This document shows positions 48,381 to 62,025 of a stretch of 64,000 nucleotides of DNA, piece by piece. The notes beneath the pieces are model-generated. The model searched no databases and was not told where the DNA came from. It saw only the letters and a program-made list of their open reading frames with translations. How positions within the stretch are numbered: position 1 is the stretch's first letter; each line of letters opens with the position of its first letter. Where the stretch lies: positions 77,497-141,496 of IMG/VR virus record IMGVR_UViG_3300023110_001943. One strand, given 5' to 3'. This DNA comes from a virus. The translations under genes were made by a program, and so were the position numbers.

Positions 48381-51300
48381 TTGAATATGAATGAACTTTC
48401 ACAATATCTCGTAGAGCAAATGCTCTTAGAGGATGAAAATCCTATTAAAAAGGTCGTAGTAATTTATGGTGGTAGATTTCAACCATTCCATAAAGGACAC
48501 TATGGCACATACCAACACCTTGTCAAAAAATTCGGTAAGAATAATGTTTTTATCAGTACTTCCAACAAAGTAGAAAAACCCAAATCACCTTTTAACTTCA
48601 AAGAGAAGGTGAAAATCATGACTACGATGTTCAATATACCTAAATCAAAAATAGTACAGGTAAGAAACAATTATGCACCGAAAGAAATCCTCGATAAATA
48701 CGATAAAGAAACAACTGCCTTCGTAACCGTTGTTGGTGAGAAAGATTCTGGTAGATTAGGTGGAAAGTATTTTAGACCATGGAAAGGAAAGGCCGAAATT
48801 GGTTATGAAGAGGGTGGATATGTTTATGCTTCACCATCACAAGGTAGGGGTATAAGTGGAACTGAAACTCGTAATGGGTTATCAGTTGGTTCGGATGAAC
48901 AAAAACAAAACTTCTTTAAGAATCGTGCATATGGAAAGTTCAATATGACGATTTTCAAAATGATTACTGATAAACTTAATGAAGGAATTGAGATTCCTAA
49001 AGAAGTAATTGAAGAATGGCTCATCAATGAGAGTTCTAACTTAGGTGGGAACGCTGGAAGTGATGTTGATGATGGGCCAAGCTTCTTTTTTCCAAATTAC
49101 GATGTGTTTTCAAAGGTAAATATAGATAGAGCTAAGAAAATAGGTTGGGAAGTTCTTAATATGATTACCACACAAGAAATCGAAGATTATTATGACCACC
49201 CAAACTATCCAAATGGACCTGTTAAGGCAACTTCATTCTTTCCAGCAGGTATTATTGGTAATATGACTCCCAACAACCAGATAGATATTTACTCAAGTGG
49301 TGCATACTCACAATGGTTTAAACATGCAACCCGTAAGGCAACTTTAGCTGGATATGAATTAGTAAAATCAATTTCTGCAAAAGCTGATATTTCTCAAGAT
49401 AAAAATCAATCTGGTAATTTAGCAAAAGGTGATAAAGAATTGAAAGATGAATTTGAAAATTCTTTAAACGAAAATATTGTATTACCTGTTAAGGTTGGTG
49501 ATACTATCCTAACGGGTAGATTTAAAAATAAAAAAGTAACTGTAAAAACAATTGGTAAAGATGAACATGGAATGCCAACTATCAATGGTAAAAAGGTAGT
49601 AACCTTTAGATTGATGAAAGAAGGTTTCCAAGCAATATTTGAAGATGAAAAAGAAGATGAGAAATATACCCATGTAGGTAATGGTAACTATAAACTAAAA
49701 GGTAAAGAAGGTGAAGATGACCCAACTTTCAAAAAAGATGATAGTGGAAAATATATTGAGTTAGATAAAGATGGTAAAACTAAACCACAGCCAAAACAAG
49801 GTACATCTTTAAAACAAGGTGGGTATGACAATAAAGTAAAAAAAGAAAAAGAGATTCAAAAAAAGATTAGTGGAGATACTTCAAATGAAAAACCACAACC
49901 CAAAGAAGAACCAAAATCAAAAGTAACAACTTTACAAGGAAAAAAGTCTGGTAAAGAAATTCAAAATCTTGGTTTAGATGGTGGTGGTAAAGTATATGGA
50001 ACGGAGCACGGAGAAACCGCAATGGTTGATGATATCCTTGATGATGTTAAAAAGAACATACCAAAAGAAAGATGGAAAGATATTGTATTCGTAGGTGAAG
50101 GTGGTGCAACTGGAGATAATGGTGAATTAGAATTCAATGATGAAATGGATTATGCTGTTCCTAAATTCAAAGAATTGGGTGCAGGTATTGATACATGGGA
50201 TGGTGATGAAATGGATGTTCATAATGACCAATCCAAATTGTATAAAAGACAAATGGAAAAAACTGGTCTTAATCAATCACAAGTTAATGCAGGTAATTGG
50301 GCAAGTATGATTGGACAGGGTGAAGGAACTGATACCATGAGTCCTGATGATTTTTTAGATGATGAAGGAAAAGAATACATACAATCTGCAGCAAAAGAGG
50401 CAGGATTTCCTCCAATAGAAAATTGGGAGAATCCAACAGGTGAAACCCCAAGTGATGAAAATGATTGGAAAGGAAGTGGCGATAAAGGAACATTATATCG
50501 TTTAGCATTTCCAGAAGATAACAAAGATAAACAAACAAAGATAGGTGATATTCAAGATGCATTTAATGAAACAAGAGATGAACACCTTATTAAAAAAAGT
50601 AAAGAATTATCTTCTCAAGGAAAAATACCAATTGTCATAGCAGGTGAATCTCATGTAGGGTTGGTTGATAAAATGATGAAGAATGAATCTATTGGTTTAA
50701 GAGAATCTATTGCTGGAACAGAAGTTAAGTGTGAGAAATGTAATCACTCTTGGGAAATAGAATCAGAAGATACTGAAAAATACTTATGTCATTCTTGTGG
50801 TTGGGATTCACAAAAACAAGAATATGATTTTGATGCATTTGATTCTTGGCAAGAAAAAATGGGATTATCTGAAGATGTAGATATAGATGAAAGAAGTAAA
50901 GGAAAGTTAAGACCAGCAGATTTACTAAGAAGAAAGGCTAAAATGGCTGGTAAACGAGCACAGATTCAACGAAGAAGAGCTCGTACCATGAAAAGAAGAA
51001 AATCTATTGATAAACTTAAAAAGATTGCATACAAAAAAGCATACTTAGAAGTTTACAAAGAATTTATGGAAGATTTGTTTCCTGGTAAAACAAAAGCAGA
51101 ATTAACTATTCAACAGGCAAAGGTAGTTCATAAAAATGTACTTAGAAAAAAGAAAAGAGTTTTAAAAAGAGCAAGATTTAAGTTCTTACCTAAACTTAGA
51201 GATGCAGAAGTAGATAAATTTGATAACAAATCAAACATTTCATTTAATAAACCAAAAGAAACAAATGAAATGTCTAAATCTACTCTTAATAAGATTGAAA

Positions 51301-53645
51301 AATATGCTGAGAAACAATTATCACCAGAAGATATTGAGTTCACAAAACATTTTTTCGATAGATTGAACGACCCTCGTAATGGAAAAGAAATTTCTGATGC
51401 AGAATTGACGGGATTTTTTAAAAGATTATCAAAGTATAAAAAGAAATTTAAAGAATTCTTAGAAAAATATCAACAAATCGTTGTAAAAGATAAAAGACAT
51501 GATATCAATATTCCATTTGTTAAACAAGCAAATCAGATTATTGCAAAAACAGTAATGAGAAAGGATGATTTTAAAACATCTAACCCTGTTCTTGCATTTG
51601 AACAACTTGCAAAAGGTATGAGTTTAAGAGATATTGCAGAAAAACACGAAGTTTCTTTCGAAGAATTAAAGAAAGAAGCAGGAAAAGGTGTTAAAGTTGA
51701 AATGGAACACACTTCAGATGTAAAAGTTGCATACGATATCGCTAAAGACCACTTATTCGAGGACCCAAAATACTACACAAAACTTGCAACCATAGAGGAA
51801 GTAGGAGTTGGTACTGGTCAAAGTGGTATTCGTATGGGATATCCATCTAAAGATGATTTAAAACGAATCGAAAAAAGAGTTAAGAAACAAAGAAATAATA
51901 CTGATTCAAATCAAGAGTATCAATATGAACCAATTAGAGAAGGTAAAGAACTTAAAAAATTAGGAATCACCGATTTCAAATCACTCTTTAAGAAAATGCC
52001 ATCTGATTTACAAAAGAGAGTGTATAACTTAAAGAACTTTGGACAGAGAATTGATAAACACCCTGAAGGGAATGTACTTAAACATACAATCACAGTTGTA
52101 AATCGTTCAATCAAAGAAGATGATATCGATATTGCAATCGCAGCAATGTTCCACGATATAGGAAAAGATGAAACTGCGGGAATTCATCCAAAGAAAGGAC
52201 ATATCACACACTTTGGACATGAGAAAGTATCTGCTAATTTAGTAAATAAGTACAAAAAATGGATTGAATCAGTTGGTGGTAATGTAGATACGGTTCACTA
52301 TATAGTAAAAAATCATATGAGATACAAACAACTATCTGATATGAGACCTAAGAAACAATCTGATTTAAAATCTCATCCAAATTTTGATAAATTAAGTAAG
52401 TTTTCTAAACATGATAGAGGTGGATTAGGAGAAGGTATCATTACAGAAGGTGGTGCGTATGGACATATGTCTCACCCATTCGATACTGATATCAATTTAA
52501 CCTTTGGACAATTAAAAGATATCGTAAATCGTGCACTCGAAGGTACACTTGAGTTTACAAGAGAGAAAACTGATGGTCAAGCTCTTGCAATTTCATGGAG
52601 AGATGGAAGATTAGTAGCAGCTAGGAACAAAGGACACCTTAAAAACAAAGGTGAGAACGCATTAGATATCAAAGGTGTATCAGATAAGTTCCAAGGTAGA
52701 GGTGGATTATCAGATGCTTACAACTATGCAATGAAAGACCTTTCAAATGCTATATCTTCTCTTAACGATAAACAAAGAGATAAGATTTTTAAACAAGGTG
52801 CGTGTTTTATGAACCTTGAAGTGATATATCCAACATCAGTTAATGTAATTCCTTACGGTCAAGCGTTACTTGTATTCCATGGAACGATGGAATATAACGA
52901 TGAGGGTGTTGCAATTGGTGAAAATGGTGAGGCTGCAAGAATCTTGGCAGGTATGATTAAACAAGTTAACAAAGATGTACAAGATAATTATACGATTCAA
53001 GGCCCACCTGTTGTAAAACTACCTAAATCTACCGATTTATCAAAGAAAAGAAGTAAATATTCATCTCAAATCTCTAAATTACAAAAAGAATTCGGATTAA
53101 AGGATACGGATGGTGTTGCAAACTACCATCAAGCATGGTGGGAACAATGGGTTGATAAAAATTCACCATCAACACTTGATAACAAAACTAAAATGGGGTT
53201 AGTTAAGAGATGGGCATTCATGGATAAGAAGTTTAGATTAGATAATAAGAATATTACTGATTCTAAAACACTTGAATGGGCTAAAAAGATAGATAAAGAG
53301 GACCAAAAGAAGATTTCTAAACAGAATTTAATGAAGTTTGAACAGATTTTCTTAGGATTAGGAGCAGAAGTGTTAGAATTTACTTCATCTGCTCTAACTG
53401 TAAACCCTGATGCAGCAGTTCGTGATATGAAAAAGAGAATTGATAAAACAATCAAGGATGTTAAGAAATCAGGAGACCCAAAAAAGATAGAAAAACTTAA
53501 ATTAGAACTCCAAAGATTAAATTCTATTGGAGGTTCTAAAAAAATAGTACCGAATGAAGGTATAGTTTTCTTATATAATGGAAATACCTTCAAACTTACA
53601 GGTACATTTGCATCAGTAAACCAAATACTTGGTATTTTCTTCTAA
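48381..53645 (+). CDS. Multidomain (polyvalent) protein: HxGH nucleotidyltransferase, TraB/ChaN-like, Zn ribbon, DUF5661-like, HD domain, RNA-ligase-like
   Basis: 'GRFQPFHKGH'; 'GTEHG..VGEG..RD..AGESH'; 'CEKC..CHSC'; 'KVEMEHT..IAKDHL.E.PKYY.KL'; 'HPEG.V..HT..FHDIGK..GHE..SA..HM'; 'EKTDG..NLE..EGIVF..FKL'. Start may be ATG 48387. Confidence 0.75.
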   Translation: MNMNELSQYLVEQMLLEDENPIKKVVVIYGGRFQPFHKGHYGTYQHLVKKFGKNNVFISTSNKVEKPKSPFNFKEKVKIMTTMFNIPKSKIVQVRNNYAPKEILDKYDKETTAFVTVVGEKDSGRLGGKYFRPWKGKAEIGYEEGGYVYASPSQGRGISGTETRNGLSVGSDEQKQNFFKNRAYGKFNMTIFKMITDKLNEGIEIPKEVIEEWLINESSNLGGNAGSDVDDGPSFFFPNYDVFSKVNIDRAKKIGWEVLNMITTQEIEDYYDHPNYPNGPVKATSFFPAGIIGNMTPNNQIDIYSSGAYSQWFKHATRKATLAGYELVKSISAKADISQDKNQSGNLAKGDKELKDEFENSLNENIVLPVKVGDTILTGRFKNKKVTVKTIGKDEHGMPTINGKKVVTFRLMKEGFQAIFEDEKEDEKYTHVGNGNYKLKGKEGEDDPTFKKDDSGKYIELDKDGKTKPQPKQGTSLKQGGYDNKVKKEKEIQKKISGDTSNEKPQPKEEPKSKVTTLQGKKSGKEIQNLGLDGGGKVYGTEHGETAMVDDILDDVKKNIPKERWKDIVFVGEGGATGDNGELEFNDEMDYAVPKFKELGAGIDTWDGDEMDVHNDQSKLYKRQMEKTGLNQSQVNAGNWASMIGQGEGTDTMSPDDFLDDEGKEYIQSAAKEAGFPPIENWENPTGETPSDENDWKGSGDKGTLYRLAFPEDNKDKQTKIGDIQDAFNETRDEHLIKKSKELSSQGKIPIVIAGESHVGLVDKMMKNESIGLRESIAGTEVKCEKCNHSWEIESEDTEKYLCHSCGWDSQKQEYDFDAFDSWQEKMGLSEDVDIDERSKGKLRPADLLRRKAKMAGKRAQIQRRRARTMKRRKSIDKLKKIAYKKAYLEVYKEFMEDLFPGKTKAELTIQQAKVVHKNVLRKKKRVLKRARFKFLPKLRDAEVDKFDNKSNISFNKPKETNEMSKSTLNKIEKYAEKQLSPEDIEFTKHFFDRLNDPRNGKEISDAELTGFFKRLSKYKKKFKEFLEKYQQIVVKDKRHDINIPFVKQANQIIAKTVMRKDDFKTSNPVLAFEQLAKGMSLRDIAEKHEVSFEELKKEAGKGVKVEMEHTSDVKVAYDIAKDHLFEDPKYYTKLATIEEVGVGTGQSGIRMGYPSKDDLKRIEKRVKKQRNNTDSNQEYQYEPIREGKELKKLGITDFKSLFKKMPSDLQKRVYNLKNFGQRIDKHPEGNVLKHTITVVNRSIKEDDIDIAIAAMFHDIGKDETAGIHPKKGHITHFGHEKVSANLVNKYKKWIESVGGNVDTVHYIVKNHMRYKQLSDMRPKKQSDLKSHPNFDKLSKFSKHDRGGLGEGIITEGGAYGHMSHPFDTDINLTFGQLKDIVNRALEGTLEFTREKTDGQALAISWRDGRLVAARNKGHLKNKGENALDIKGVSDKFQGRGGLSDAYNYAMKDLSNAISSLNDKQRDKIFKQGACFMNLEVIYPTSVNVIPYGQALLVFHGTMEYNDEGVAIGENGEAARILAGMIKQVNKDVQDNYTIQGPPVVKLPKSTDLSKKRSKYSSQISKLQKEFGLKDTDGVANYHQAWWEQWVDKNSPSTLDNKTKMGLVKRWAFMDKKFRLDNKNITDSKTLEWAKKIDKEDQKKISKQNLMKFEQIFLGLGAEVLEFTSSALTVNPDAAVRDMKKRIDKTIKDVKKSGDPKKIEKLKLELQRLNSIGGSKKIVPNEGIVFLYNGNTFKLTGTFASVNQILGIFF

Positions 53646-53705: not shown

Positions 53706-54365
53706 ATGGGTAAAGATTTCAAAAAAAAATATATGCATCCAACTCGTAGAAAGTTGGTAGATATGATTCATACTGGTGAGTATGATAAAAATACTCAAAT
53801 TGGTTGGACAAAAACTGAAGAACAACGAAAAGTTGGTGATACTTGGGAAGATGAAACCCACAGATATGAGAAAAAGGAAGGTTATATCTTAAAAACAGGT
53901 AAAAACTCAGAAGCACTTCAAGAAATTAGAAAATATCTTGAAGAAAAATCAAAATGTAAGAATTCGGAGTGTAAAACACTTAAAAAAAGTGAAAAAGATT
54001 TAAAATTTATCCAAAAAGGTGGATTTTGTTTAAATTGTACGGTTGATAGAGAACACGAAATAAAAATGGCAGGGTTATGGATTCCATATGAAGATTATAA
54101 GATTGCAACTCGTATGATTGTGTATGGAAAGACTAAATTAGAAGAATTAAAACAATCTTTATCAGAAATTAAAGAACAATATGAAATGATTGGTTCTGAT
54201 GGTAAGGTTACAGAAACTTGGAAACTACCGAAACCAATTGAAGAGGTAAAGGCAGAGATTCAAGAGATGATAGACAACGGAGAAAAAGAATTAGAGGTGA
54301 TTGTAGAAAAAAGAAACGAAGCCTTTAATCAATTAAAGGAAAAAAACTATGAGCATTATATTTAA
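53706..54365 (+). CDS. Hypothetical protein with Cys cluster and coiled coil
   Basis: 219 aa; 'CKNSEC..CLNC'; two genes upstream of the terminase. Confidence 0.6.
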   Translation: MGKDFKKKYMHPTRRKLVDMIHTGEYDKNTQIGWTKTEEQRKVGDTWEDETHRYEKKEGYILKTGKNSEALQEIRKYLEEKSKCKNSECKTLKKSEKDLKFIQKGGFCLNCTVDREHEIKMAGLWIPYEDYKIATRMIVYGKTKLEELKQSLSEIKEQYEMIGSDGKVTETWKLPKPIEEVKAEIQEMIDNGEKELEVIVEKRNEAFNQLKEKNYEHYI

Positions 54366-55039: not shown

Positions 55040-56632
55040 ATGGCTAAACAAAGTTTAAAGGAAATAATTAAACTTGAGTATCAAAAATGTGCTCAAGACC
55101 CAATACACTTCATGAAGAAGTATTGTATGATTCAACATCCAGTCCGAGGCAAAATTCCTTTTCACTTATATCCATTCCAAGAAAGAACTTTAGACCAATT
55201 CAATGAACACAGATACAATATAATTCTAAAATCTCGACAAACAGGTATCTCAACCTTAACTGCAGGATTTGCATTATGGAAAATGTTGTTCAATCAAGAT
55301 TTTAATGTATTAGTTATTGCAACTAAACAAGAAGTTGCTAAGAACCTTGTAACGAAGGTTCGTGTAATGAATCAGTACTTACCATCGTGGTTAAAACAAA
55401 CAACAGTAGAAGATAACAAATTATCCCTAAGATACTCAAATGGTTCTCAGATAAAAGCAACTTCAGCCGCTGGAGATGCTGGTCGTTCTGAAGCACTATC
55501 ACTTTTAGTATTTGATGAGGCTGCTTTTATTGATAAGATTGAGGATATTTGGGTATCGGCTCAATCTACCTTATCTACTGGTGGTAATGCAATTATTCTT
55601 TCTACACCCAATGGTGTCGGAAATTTCTTTCACAAAACTTGGGTAGGTGCAGAAGAAGAAGAAAATGGATTCAATACAATTCGTTTACATTGGTCAGTTC
55701 ATCCTGAAAGAAACCAAGATTGGAGAGATGAACAGGAAAAACTATTAGGACCAAAGGGAGCGGCACAAGAATGTGATTGTGATTTCGTTTCTTCTGGTGA
55801 TACTGTAATAGACCCACAACTTTTAATGTTCTACAAAGAATCTTATTGTCAAGAACCAATAGAAAAGACAGGATTTGATGGAAACCTTTGGAAATGGGAA
55901 TACCCAAACTACAATAAATCTTACATGGTTGTAGCCGATGTTGCTCGTGGAGATTCATCGGATTATTCAGCTTGTCATGTTTTTGATGTTGAAGAAGCAT
56001 CTCAAGTAGCAGAATATAAAGGTAAATTAGATACAAAGGATTTTGGAAACTTCCTTGTATCACTTGCAACAGATTATAATCAAGCATTACTTGTGATTGA
56101 GAATGCAAACATTGGATGGGCGGTTATACAACAAGTAATTGATAGAGGATATCAGAACTTATTCTATATGAGTAAGGATTTAAAATATGTAGATGTTGAA
56201 CATCAACTATCAAATAGATACCGTGCCGAAGAACGAGGTATGGTTGCAGGATTTAGTACTACATCCAAAACAAGACCTTTGATTATATCAAAGTTGGATG
56301 ATTATTTTAGAGATAAATCAGTAACAGTTCGTTCATCAAGATTAATCGATGAATTATTCACTTTCATATGGAAAGGAAATAGAGCAGAAGCAATGACTGG
56401 ATACAATGATGATTTAACTATGTCATTTGCAATTGGTCTTTGGGTTCGTGATACAGCATTAAGATTAAGACAAGAGGGAATTGATTTAACCAAACAAGCA
56501 TTGGGTGGTATTGGAGCACATCAATTAGATATAGTAGGTATGGGATTTGGTGGTAATTCTGCACTCGAAGAAAATCCATGGAAACAACGAGTTGGTGATA
56601 CAAATGAGGATTTAACTTGGTTAATTAAATAA
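55040..56632 (+). CDS. terL: Terminase large subunit (T4 gp17-like)
   Basis: 'LYPFQ', Walker A 'KSRQTGIST', Walker B 'LLVFDEAAF', 'STPNG', nuclease 'ADVARG..DYS', 'NDDL'. Confidence 0.95.
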   Translation: MAKQSLKEIIKLEYQKCAQDPIHFMKKYCMIQHPVRGKIPFHLYPFQERTLDQFNEHRYNIILKSRQTGISTLTAGFALWKMLFNQDFNVLVIATKQEVAKNLVTKVRVMNQYLPSWLKQTTVEDNKLSLRYSNGSQIKATSAAGDAGRSEALSLLVFDEAAFIDKIEDIWVSAQSTLSTGGNAIILSTPNGVGNFFHKTWVGAEEEENGFNTIRLHWSVHPERNQDWRDEQEKLLGPKGAAQECDCDFVSSGDTVIDPQLLMFYKESYCQEPIEKTGFDGNLWKWEYPNYNKSYMVVADVARGDSSDYSACHVFDVEEASQVAEYKGKLDTKDFGNFLVSLATDYNQALLVIENANIGWAVIQQVIDRGYQNLFYMSKDLKYVDVEHQLSNRYRAEERGMVAGFSTTSKTRPLIISKLDDYFRDKSVTVRSSRLIDELFTFIWKGNRAEAMTGYNDDLTMSFAIGLWVRDTALRLRQEGIDLTKQALGGIGAHQLDIVGMGFGGNSALEENPWKQRVGDTNEDLTWLIK

Positions 56633-61255: not shown

Positions 61256-61432
61256 ATGACTAAGAAAGAGTTGTATGATATTATCAATGAGGAAATCGTT
61301 AATTTTAAAAAAGGAACAATCAACGAAGAACTCAATGAATCTGATAAGGATTTAATCCGAAAAATTATCAGACAAGAGGTATCAGCAATCTTTTTTGATT
61401 TGTTTAAGAAAAGAAAAACTTGGGGAGCGTAA
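61256..61432 (+). CDS. Small head-region protein (58 aa, not in ORF track)
   Basis: MTKKELYDIINEEIVNFKKGTINEELNESDKDLIRKIIRQEVSAIFFDLFKKRKTWGA; TAATG overlap with the protease start. Confidence 0.7.
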   Translation: MTKKELYDIINEEIVNFKKGTINEELNESDKDLIRKIIRQEVSAIFFDLFKKRKTWGA

Positions 61433-62025
61433 TGAGTAAACTATTAATAGAAACCAGATTATTCGAAGGTAGAGTAAACGAAGATGATAGTGGAAGAACT
61501 ATCGTTAAGGGTATTTTACAAAGAGCTGGTGCGGAAAATCAAAACGGAAGAATCTACCCAAAAGAGATTCTGATGAGAGAAGCAAAAAAATACGAAACAC
61601 TTATTAAAGAAAGAAGAGCATTGGGTGAATTAGACCATCCTGATTCTTCTGTAATCAACCTAAAGAATGTATCTCACAATGTAAGAGAGATTCATTGGGA
61701 TGGTGAAGATTTAGTTGGTACAGTAGAGATATTACCTACACCAAGTGGAAACATCTTAAAAGAATTATTAAAAGCAGGAATCCTTCTTGGTATATCATCT
61801 CGTGGTATGGGTTCGGTAGAACCTTTATCGGGTGGTAAAGTACAAGTAGGAGAAGATTTTGAATTGATTGGTTGGGATTTTGTATCCAATCCATCTACAC
61901 ATGGTGCATTTATGGTGCCAATGAATGAATCTGTGAATAAACAACTTCAAAAACAAACAGTAGTTTGTAACGAATGGTGTAAGGCACAAGATATGATGAG
62001 AGAAATTATAACAGAATTAAGTTAA
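61432..62025 (+). CDS. Prohead core protease (T4 gp21-like)
   Basis: 'NQNGRIYP', 'ALGELDHP', 'GISSRGMGS', 'WDFVSNPSTHGA'. Start moved to ATG 61432. Confidence 0.93.
   Translation: MSKLLIETRLFEGRVNEDDSGRTIVKGILQRAGAENQNGRIYPKEILMREAKKYETLIKERRALGELDHPDSSVINLKNVSHNVREIHWDGEDLVGTVEILPTPSGNILKELLKAGILLGISSRGMGSVEPLSGGKVQVGEDFELIGWDFVSNPSTHGAFMVPMNESVNKQLQKQTVVCNEWCKAQDMMREIITELS

Follow-up and report, generated by a model that had tools for sequence, protein, structure and literature searches.

The RNA repair enzymes of bacteriophage T4 act in the cytoplasm as a counter to anticodon nucleases, and in the same phage the cleavage site of the internal head proteins reads [LI]-x-E. Phage RNA ligases are partnered with a polynucleotide kinase (Pnk), with a phosphoesterase, a role in which an HD domain occasionally serves as the phosphatase, and with CCA enzymes (PMC7824862). 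Every internal head protein of T4 has a capsid-targeting leader, and proteases of the gp21 family cut after Glu (PMC5694885, PMC3012670), while large 'polyvalent' proteins embedded in the virion are a described class (PMC5512222, PMC9503650). Here we analyse a stretch of 64,000 nucleotides (the 64-kb window, to which all coordinates refer unless a contig is named) that covers positions 77,497 to 141,496 of the IMG/VR virus record IMGVR_UViG_3300023110_001943. Within it, one open reading frame (ORF) ends in an HD phosphoesterase module followed by an RNA-ligase-like domain. The explanation that we favour, and to which as a whole we give about an even chance, is that these are the last modules of a late polyprotein carried as cargo in the phage head.

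An earlier note on this DNA had described an HD phosphoesterase and an RNA-ligase-like module at positions 51942-53645 as a candidate injected RNA heal-and-seal kit. Both features are real, but they do not make up a separate, free-standing gene; the stretch forms the C-terminal third of a single plus-strand ORF of 1754 amino acids (aa).

48381-53645, plus strand: multidomain ORF (polyprotein), 1754 aa; homologues of 1200-1900 aa share the same end domains.
51942-52448, plus strand: HD phosphoesterase module, aa 1188-1356, recognized by Pfam HD, the HD part of TIGR02692, PDB entry 3wfp and invariant residues.
52449-53645, plus strand: RNA-ligase-like covalent nucleotidyltransferase domain, aa 1357-1754 plus the stop codon (398 aa), recognized from its model and structure searches.

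The ligase-like domain contains the elements below, in which four-digit residue numbers are those of the ORF and smaller ones those of the domain.

52449-52484, plus strand: family-specific conserved N-terminal segment, GGAYGHMSHPFD, with G17, G18, G21, H22 and H25 nearly invariant.
52563-52577, plus strand: motif I, EKTDG, with K1396 the predicted nucleotidyl-accepting lysine; K56, D58 and G59 invariant.
52812-52829, plus strand: motif III, NLEVIY, with E1480; E140 is invariant and aligns with the Glu of motif III in Rnl1 and Rnl2.
52869-52883, plus strand: candidate motif IIIa, LVFHG, a tentative assignment; F159 and H160 nearly invariant.
52926-53540, plus strand: all-helical insert of ~205 aa between motifs IIIa and IV (model residues 176-380), a candidate substrate-recognition domain.
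53556-53570, plus strand: motif IV, EGIVF; E386 and G387 invariant.
53589-53603, plus strand: motif V, FKLTG; K398 (K1738) invariant, T400 nearly invariant.

The motifs that the earlier note had named (the HD set, EKTDG, NLE, EGIVF and FKL) are all in place, and ligase motifs I, III, IV and V prove to be invariant in 44 diverse homologues, each 38-80% identical to the window's domain. The residues without variation in this alignment are K56, D58, G59, R75, E140, E386, G387 and K398, corresponding to ORF positions 1396, 1398, 1399, 1415, 1480, 1726, 1727 and 1738, respectively. Judged from the sequences, the motif set is more than a chance occurrence.

AlphaFold run on the single sequence gave an unusable model (predicted local distance difference test score, pLDDT, 35.8), and an alignment was needed for a usable one. 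The AlphaFold2 model built from the 44-sequence alignment has a pLDDT of 92.6 and a predicted template-modelling score (pTM) of 0.87, with residues 1-19 disordered. When this model was compared with the PDB using Foldseek the top 12 hits were RNA ligases, fungal Trl1 being the best (E value 3e-3, probability 0.96). The list, which includes Trl1, T4 Rnl1, Pab1020, Rnl2, NgrRnl and DNA ligases, has weak E values (3e-3 and above), and the low Foldseek TM scores are explained by the large insert. VIA, an aligner independent of Foldseek that was run against 48,161 chains, ranked RNA ligases highest, with Z scores of 8.7 for TbREL1 (190 aa, root-mean-square deviation 4.0), 8.7 for NgrRnl, 8.5 for Trl1, 8.2 for Rnl2 and 8.1 for Rnl1; its ligase alignments used 186-203 residues spanning model residues 18-406. 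The Z scores were lower for DNA ligases (5.2-7.2) and capping enzymes (4.9-5.1). In BFVD the domain retrieved its own family members first, named 'cytidyltransferase-like domain-containing protein', followed by annotated phage RNA ligases. These searches bear out the proposal that the domain after the HD module has a ligase fold, and place it closest to RNA ligases. The chain stops 16 residues past motif V, and the one domain that it adds to the nucleotidyltransferase fold is helical, indicating that there is no oligonucleotide-binding (OB) domain and hence no motif VI, which is the pattern of RNA ligases rather than that of DNA ligases or capping enzymes. As Z scores of 8-9 are middling by VIA's own scale, we base the fold assignment on the uniformity of the hit list in combination with the invariant motifs. 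The domain very probably adopts, as modelled, a ligase-type fold with an intact active site.

At the sequence level the domain stands apart from described families. Searched as a single sequence and as a profile, it gave no significant match in Pfam, PHROGs, NCBIfam or the PDB sequences. Along with the middling Z scores, several results count against the favoured explanation. The Pfam models RNA_ligase (PF09414, the Rnl2 family) and RNA_lig_T4_1 (PF09511, the Rnl1 family) found no match at E <= 10 anywhere in the contig; hhalign comparisons with T4 RnlA (Rnl1; E 0.12) and T4 RnlB (Rnl2; E 0.02, probability 2%) were not significant; and motif V has a single lysine, the usual second one being a threonine. 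The comparison with Rnl1 and Rnl2 suggested in the earlier note is thus divided, with structure searches returning RNA ligases but profile comparison reaching no significance, although the non-significant hhalign alignments still pair K56 with K99 of T4 Rnl1 and K35 of T4 Rnl2, and E140 with the motif III Glu. Because neither the family models nor hhalign gave anything significant, the domain is filed as a new family in the covalent nucleotidyltransferase superfamily (ATP/NAD+ ligases and capping enzymes) and assigned to neither Rnl1 nor Rnl2.

Two candidate relationships were rejected. Matches to ribosomal protein eS6 (E 0.001-0.005) cover the Lys-rich helical insert and were treated as compositional. 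DUF6267, a lead from a protein atlas, has a hidden Markov model that finds nothing in the contig, and no mention of it was found in the literature. A 'cytidyltransferase-like' structural look-alike in BFVD, from Synechococcus phage S-PM2 (E 9e-6, TMq 0.44), is a remote lead, and may point to a very diverged version in T4-like cyanophages; a search of the S-PM2 genome with the family profile gave no match. The region of S-PM2 at NC_006820 98000-112000 contains one gene with a Pfam cytidyltransferase domain, which lies among replication genes.

The family itself is large, with 1955 matches in a collection clustered at 90% identity that fall into 1764 clusters at 50% identity, named only 'hypothetical protein'. 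The domain is nearly always located at the C-terminal end of proteins of 600-1900 aa or encoded by a free-standing gene of ~414 aa.

The structural relationship to DNA ligases, which share the fold at Z scores of 5.2-7.2, raises the alternative that the domain acts on DNA, sealing or adenylating ends or nicks of the injected genome in place of a phage DNA ligase. A head-packaged protein would adjoin DNA, and no Pfam model of an ATP- or NAD-type DNA ligase finds a match in the source contig (141,496 bp; hereafter the 141-kb contig). This contig is, however, an estimated 76% complete, and a DNA ligase gene may lie in the part that it does not cover. The lack of an OB domain after motif V, the higher VIA scores of RNA ligases and the location of the gene in relatives, in an operon with Pnk, HD and CCA-adding enzymes (see below), all argue against activity on DNA, which we regard as very improbable.

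The HD module precedes the ligase-like domain directly and contains the motifs that the earlier note had listed.

52059-52076, plus strand: HPEGNV.
52149-52166, plus strand: FHDIGK, with the HD dipeptide at 52152.
52209-52223, plus strand: HFGHE.
Within 52308-52325, plus strand: NHM.

Pfam HD (PF01966) matches aa 1242-1319 with 29.3 bits against a gathering cut-off of 22 (E 1.1e-6). The top NCBIfam match is to TIGR02692, a model of CCA tRNA nucleotidyltransferases, of which only the HD part (positions 250-350) is matched (E 1e-8), with 34 bits against a full-length cut-off of 438.8. The sole match among PDB sequences is the A-adding enzyme of Aquifex (3wfp, E 0.005). The canonical HD residues H1227, H1258-D1259, H1280, H1312 and D1345 are present, and are invariant in 86 distinct close homologues. 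These matches, in combination with the invariant His and Asp residues, uphold the earlier note's assignment of the HD domain to the type carried by tRNA nucleotidyltransferases; the module is predicted to be a metal-dependent phosphoesterase of the kind found on bacterial CCA-adding enzymes. Yakunin and colleagues, in 2004, reportedly found 2',3'-cyclic phosphodiesterase and phosphatase activity in the HD of E. coli Cca. By analogy, the activity of the module would be the removal of 2',3'-cyclic phosphates or 3'-phosphates from RNA ends.

A role in RNA repair is supported by the gene organization of a relative, the 189-kb contig L009, in which the modules are separate consecutive genes directly upstream of those for the large terminase (TerL) and portal. 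These genes encode, in order, an 887-aa NMNAT-DUF5661 protein, a 368-aa CCA-adding enzyme, a 167-aa kinase, a 288-aa HD protein and a 414-aa ligase-like protein that is 77% identical to the window's domain. Between the CCA-adding gene and the ligase-like gene, each gene overlaps the next by its stop and start codons. Matches of the kinase include Pnkp1 from the RNA repair complex of Capnocytophaga (4xrp, E 6e-9) and T4 Pnk (1ly1, E 6e-4); BLASTP aligns it with T4 PseT over the whole kinase domain (E 2e-7, 28% identity), and it also matches the kinase of Clostridium Pnkp. As read from its predicted products, this operon of kinase, phosphoesterase, ligase-fold enzyme and CCA enzyme is the published phage RNA-repair arrangement, and provides the strongest argument for a heal-and-seal function.

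In two further contexts an NMNAT-polyprotein gene is directly upstream of a free-standing ligase-like gene, which is followed by TerL and portal, and in another the ligase-like gene is two genes before TerL. Overall, the ligase-like gene is 2-4 genes upstream of TerL in five of the six contexts examined.

The HD-bearing lineage shows how the pieces are combined. Of 120 homologues whose HD modules are 81% identical or more, a CCA head is present in 72 and the ligase-like domain in 78. The spacing seen in the window, 100 aa between HD and ligase motifs, recurs in 19 of the 120, and a spacing of ~490 aa with an intervening CCA module is found in 29.

Several observations count against reading the window's two modules as a self-contained kit. 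The ORF contains neither a polynucleotide kinase nor a CCA module; PF01743, the model of the CCA pol-beta head (GGxVRD...DxD), is not found anywhere in the contig; and no homologue of the L009-type kinase was found in the contig, at its 76% completeness. In the ligase-like family as a whole, the HD motif occurs in only 4 (3%) of 120 long representatives, each of at least 600 aa and each standing for one cluster at 50% identity, and the HD module and ligase-like domain consequently need not work together; their pairing is a module only within this lineage. The heal-and-seal proposal is supported by the type of HD, by the ligase fold and by the L009 operon, but not as regards HD and ligase as a conserved pair, nor the window's ORF as a complete set.

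A candidate for the missing 5' kinase is encoded elsewhere on the contig. At contig positions 561-1382 (L004:561-1382), 77 kb upstream of the window, there is a gene for a 273-aa protein comprising a leader (MDLKSLLTE ... IIE) and an AAA_33/Zeta-like P-loop kinase (AAA_33, 31.5 bits against a cut-off of 27). In a single comparison this kinase displayed a weak likeness to T4 Pnk (22% identity, E 0.006), and the same AAA_33 module is present inside other ligase-bearing polyproteins (P0193 and P0175). The product could supply the 5' kinase and be another head-cargo protein. We consider it reasonably likely that RNA ends are the substrate of the ligase-like domain and that it works in a repair pathway. 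That it specifically counters anticodon nucleases, as the earlier note supposed, is plausible but less likely than not.

The most constant companion of the ligase-like domain is at the other end of the polyprotein.

48456-48980, plus strand: NMNAT-like HxGH nucleotidyltransferase domain (GRFQPFHKGH, ISGTxxR); CTP_transf_like, E 5.6e-8.

Pfam recognizes three domains in the ORF, CTP_transf_like (aa 28-119), DUF5661 (aa 1084-1140) and HD. The N-terminal domain has weak NCBIfam matches of the NadM/NMNAT type. Across the 120 representatives the NMNAT-type GRFQP motif is found in 97 (81%), mostly within the first 40 residues, a CCA head in six and a GxxGSGK-type P-loop in six. A Pfam search of 44 representatives identified CTP_transf_like in 32, DUF5661 in 7, ROS_MUCR in 5, PolyA_pol in 4, AAA_33 in 3 and HD in 2. 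The frequencies of GRFQP and HD indicate that these proteins have a fixed frame, NMNAT-like at the N-terminal end and ligase-like at the C-terminal end, around a variable middle to which the HD module belongs. The middle of the window's ORF (49900-50700 and 50700-51900) holds further modules common to few homologues, among them a region carrying the motifs GTEHG and AGESH, a zinc ribbon of the form CxxC...CxxC (aa 779-809), a strongly basic stretch of Lys and Arg (aa 840-945), a module matching phrog_23027 (aa 964-1071) and DUF5661.

This constancy suggests another explanation, namely that the working partner of the ligase-like domain is the NMNAT-like domain, that the HD module is interchangeable cargo and that the pair carries out a NAD-linked reaction on nucleic-acid ends. 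NAD+ or another dinucleotide may be the adenylyl donor, or the partner may supply NAD+ for a Trl1-type removal of 2'-phosphates. The two domains are directly fused in the homologue P0079 and in a 639-aa protein (WWT39297) of Microcystis phage Mel-JY01, a cultured carrier of the family, where the gene is seven genes upstream of TerL; a literature search on Mel-JY01 or on the NMNAT-ligase-like fusion found nothing. Where the genes are split, an NMNAT-like gene is immediately upstream, and the nearest relatives of the N-terminal domain in cultured phages are NadM-type NMNATs. The single-lysine motif V and weak matches of Pfam DNA_ligase_aden in 4 of the 44 family members (E 0.025) recall NAD+-dependent ligases. 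These matches are, however, non-significant, the model finds nothing in the contig and no domain Ia of the LigA type is present; moreover, should the modules be split apart by the protease, their fusion may do no more than secure co-packaging. We consider a functional NMNAT partnership unlikely. Its furthest extension, a new class of RNA ligase with an obligatory NMNAT-like partner, both delivered by the capsid and with the adenylyl group drawn from NAD+ or from a dinucleotide made by the NMNAT, is quite improbable, but if true would provide the first NAD-dependent RNA ligase and would make repair possible where a defence had drained ATP or NAD+.

With respect to the head-cargo explanation, the evidence comes from the genes around the ORF and from the positions of candidate cleavage sites within it. 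The contig has a G+C content of ~30%, with every gene on the same strand, and no tRNA genes were found in the 64-kb window. Two small genes follow the ORF, succeeded by TerL, a T4-type portal and a T4 gp21-type prohead protease.

55040-56632, plus strand: large terminase, 55.7% identical to TerL of Flavobacterium phage immuto.
57086-58810, plus strand: portal protein (phrog_213, E 1.8e-63).
61420-62025, plus strand: T4 gp21-type prohead protease, which would cut [LI]xE seams (Pfam Peptidase_S77, E 1.9e-26; phrog_207).

TerL is also 54.9% identical to that of Microcystis phage Mel-JY01. The source is a marine T4-like myophage and the ORF a late polyprotein. The gene immediately 3' of the ORF (53706-54365) has no match in Pfam or PHROGs; the equivalent gene of L009 (L009:9308-9955) matches TonB_C.

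The candidate processing sites in the ORF are as follows.

48387-48431, plus strand: 15-aa leader with two [LI]xE sites, LVE and LLE, at its end, a putative capsid-targeting propeptide removed by the protease.
51930-51941, plus strand: seam PIRE before the HD module, a candidate gp21-type cleavage site; E1187 invariant in 86 HD-module homologues.
52437-52448, plus strand: seam IITE directly before the GG of the ligase-like domain, a candidate gp21-type cleavage site, with [LIMV]xE at this place in 196 of 224 homologues.

The ORF was called by the program from a TTG at 48381; since homologues open with MNELS..., the ATG at 48387 is likely the true start. A short leader ending in [LI]xE is present on most long homologues, and free-standing ligase-like genes encode a 10-15-aa leader of the same kind. 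[LIMV]xE immediately precedes the GGxxGH opening of the ligase-like domain in 87.5% of the 224 homologues, which range from 39 to 97% in identity. Thus this phage has both a gp21-family protease gene and conserved leader and seam sites.

It is also conceivable that the modules are late cytoplasmic enzymes of tRNA or RNA maintenance and not capsid cargo, the ORF being an unprocessed gene fusion. Several points that weigh against head packaging lend themselves to this view. The ORF contains 18 [LI]xE sites in total, compared with 17.0 +/- 3.7 in shuffled sequences, and because the total is not above expectation only the position and conservation of the sites count. No virion proteome covering any member of the family was found. 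A distant free-standing member (L015:7001-8251, 39% identity) follows UvsX and a DnaB-type helicase, among replication genes, and the one cytidyltransferase-domain gene of S-PM2 is likewise among replication genes, the structural look-alike from that phage not having been located there. By contrast, 87.5% of such divergent homologues have [LI]xE immediately ahead of the domain, in a linker that is disordered in the model. This is difficult to reconcile with an unprocessed fusion, as are the conserved position beside TerL, portal and protease and the presence of a gp21-type protease in the phage. Indeed, the replication-context copy itself has the same short leader, of 10 aa and ending in ISE directly before GGGFGH. 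Virions of cyanophage S-CREM2 contain a 'cytidylyltransferase' (PMC10665884), which is a loose parallel only, as homology with the family is not shown. Cytoplasmic maintenance enzymes seem to us as unlikely as the NMNAT partnership, and it is rather likely that the polyprotein is cleaved and packaged in the head. For injection ahead of phage transcription, and for action against nucleases of the PrrC/RloC type, the signals are indirect ones in the sequence: leader, seams, gp21-type protease and gene position.

In the favoured explanation, in which HD and ligase-like modules end a head-cargo polyprotein, the polyprotein would be made late and brought to the prohead core by its leader. Inside the prohead the gp21-type protease would cut the exposed [LI]xE seams, and the released modules would be carried in the capsid and injected along with the DNA. 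The HD module may then open 2',3'-cyclic phosphate ends or remove 3'-phosphates, while the ligase-like module, nucleotidylated on K1396, would pass the nucleoside monophosphate to a 5'-phosphate RNA end and seal the break. The inserted helical domain may select the substrate. Of this picture, the analysis shows the identities of the domains, the fold, the conservation of the motifs and the gene contexts; the chemistry, the RNA substrate, the processing, the packaging and any part in counter-defence are inferred.

HD phosphoesterases, enzymes of the RNA-ligase fold, phage RNA repair and head-cargo polyproteins are all of known kinds. What is new is a ligase-like family with an internal insert and no database model, the proposed delivery format and the fixed pairing with an NMNAT-like domain. 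The putative sealing enzyme thus belongs to a very large family that every source names 'hypothetical protein' and that no Pfam model matches, and its build is unusual, with a domain inserted inside the nucleotidyltransferase fold; the enzyme seems to be delivered in the head, as the last module of modular polyproteins. If both activity and packaging are true, the family would represent a new class of RNA ligase, and repair enzymes would join inhibitors and ADP-ribosyltransferases among the proteins that enter the cell together with phage DNA. A function could then be given to thousands of genes of marine phages, and the constant NMNAT-like partner could point to new chemistry.

Compared with the T4 system of Pnkp (PseT) and Rnl1 (RnlA/gp63), which counters PrrC, the locus shares the combination of phage end-healing enzymes with a lysine-nucleotidylated enzyme of the RNA-ligase fold. 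Relatives carry a kinase of the T4-Pnk/Pnkp1 type beside the HD and ligase-like genes, and T4 Rnl1 is a structural neighbour of the ligase-like domain (Z 8.1). The two systems differ in that T4 Rnl1 and the ligase-like domain have no sequence-level relation, and in that the extra helical domain lies inside the nucleotidyltransferase domain here rather than being appended C-terminally. The healer of 3' ends is an HD domain here but a HAD phosphatase in Pnkp, and the window's ORF lacks a kinase. Whereas the T4 enzymes are early or middle cytoplasmic proteins, those described here are modules of a late polyprotein encoded beside head genes.

The HD module resembles the HD domain of bacterial class II CCA-adding enzymes, as its top NCBIfam and PDB matches fall in that region and the close HD homologues share their polyprotein with a CCA head (72 of 120). 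Here, however, it is a free module of ~169 aa in a contig without a CCA head.

Rnl2/REL1, Rnl5 (Naegleria NgrRnl) and fungal Trl1 are the nearest ligases in structure (1xdn, Z 8.7; 5cot, 8.7; 9r3w, 8.5; 2hvq, 8.2) and, like the window's domain, have motifs I, III, IV and V in a nucleotidyltransferase domain that no OB domain accompanies. They are only 11-14% identical to it, Pfam RNA_ligase does not match it, and they differ from it in its insert of ~200 aa, its single motif V lysine and its N-terminal GGxxGHMxHPFD segment.

The survey of polyvalent proteins by Iyer et al. (2017) reported no RNA ligase and no link of 2H domains to RNA ligases (PMC5512222). The polyproteins described here have fixed chain ends (NMNAT-like at the N-terminus, ligase-like at the C-terminus) and vary only in the middle, which distinguishes them from polyvalent proteins, as does the fact that their packaging is deduced from sequence. 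In other respects the ORF product resembles the polyvalent proteins and the internal proteins and Alt of T4, whose capsid-targeting leaders are cut by gp21: it is a large multidomain protein encoded beside head genes, it has a short N-terminal leader and the phage encodes a gp21-family protease, a type of enzyme with cleavage after Glu.

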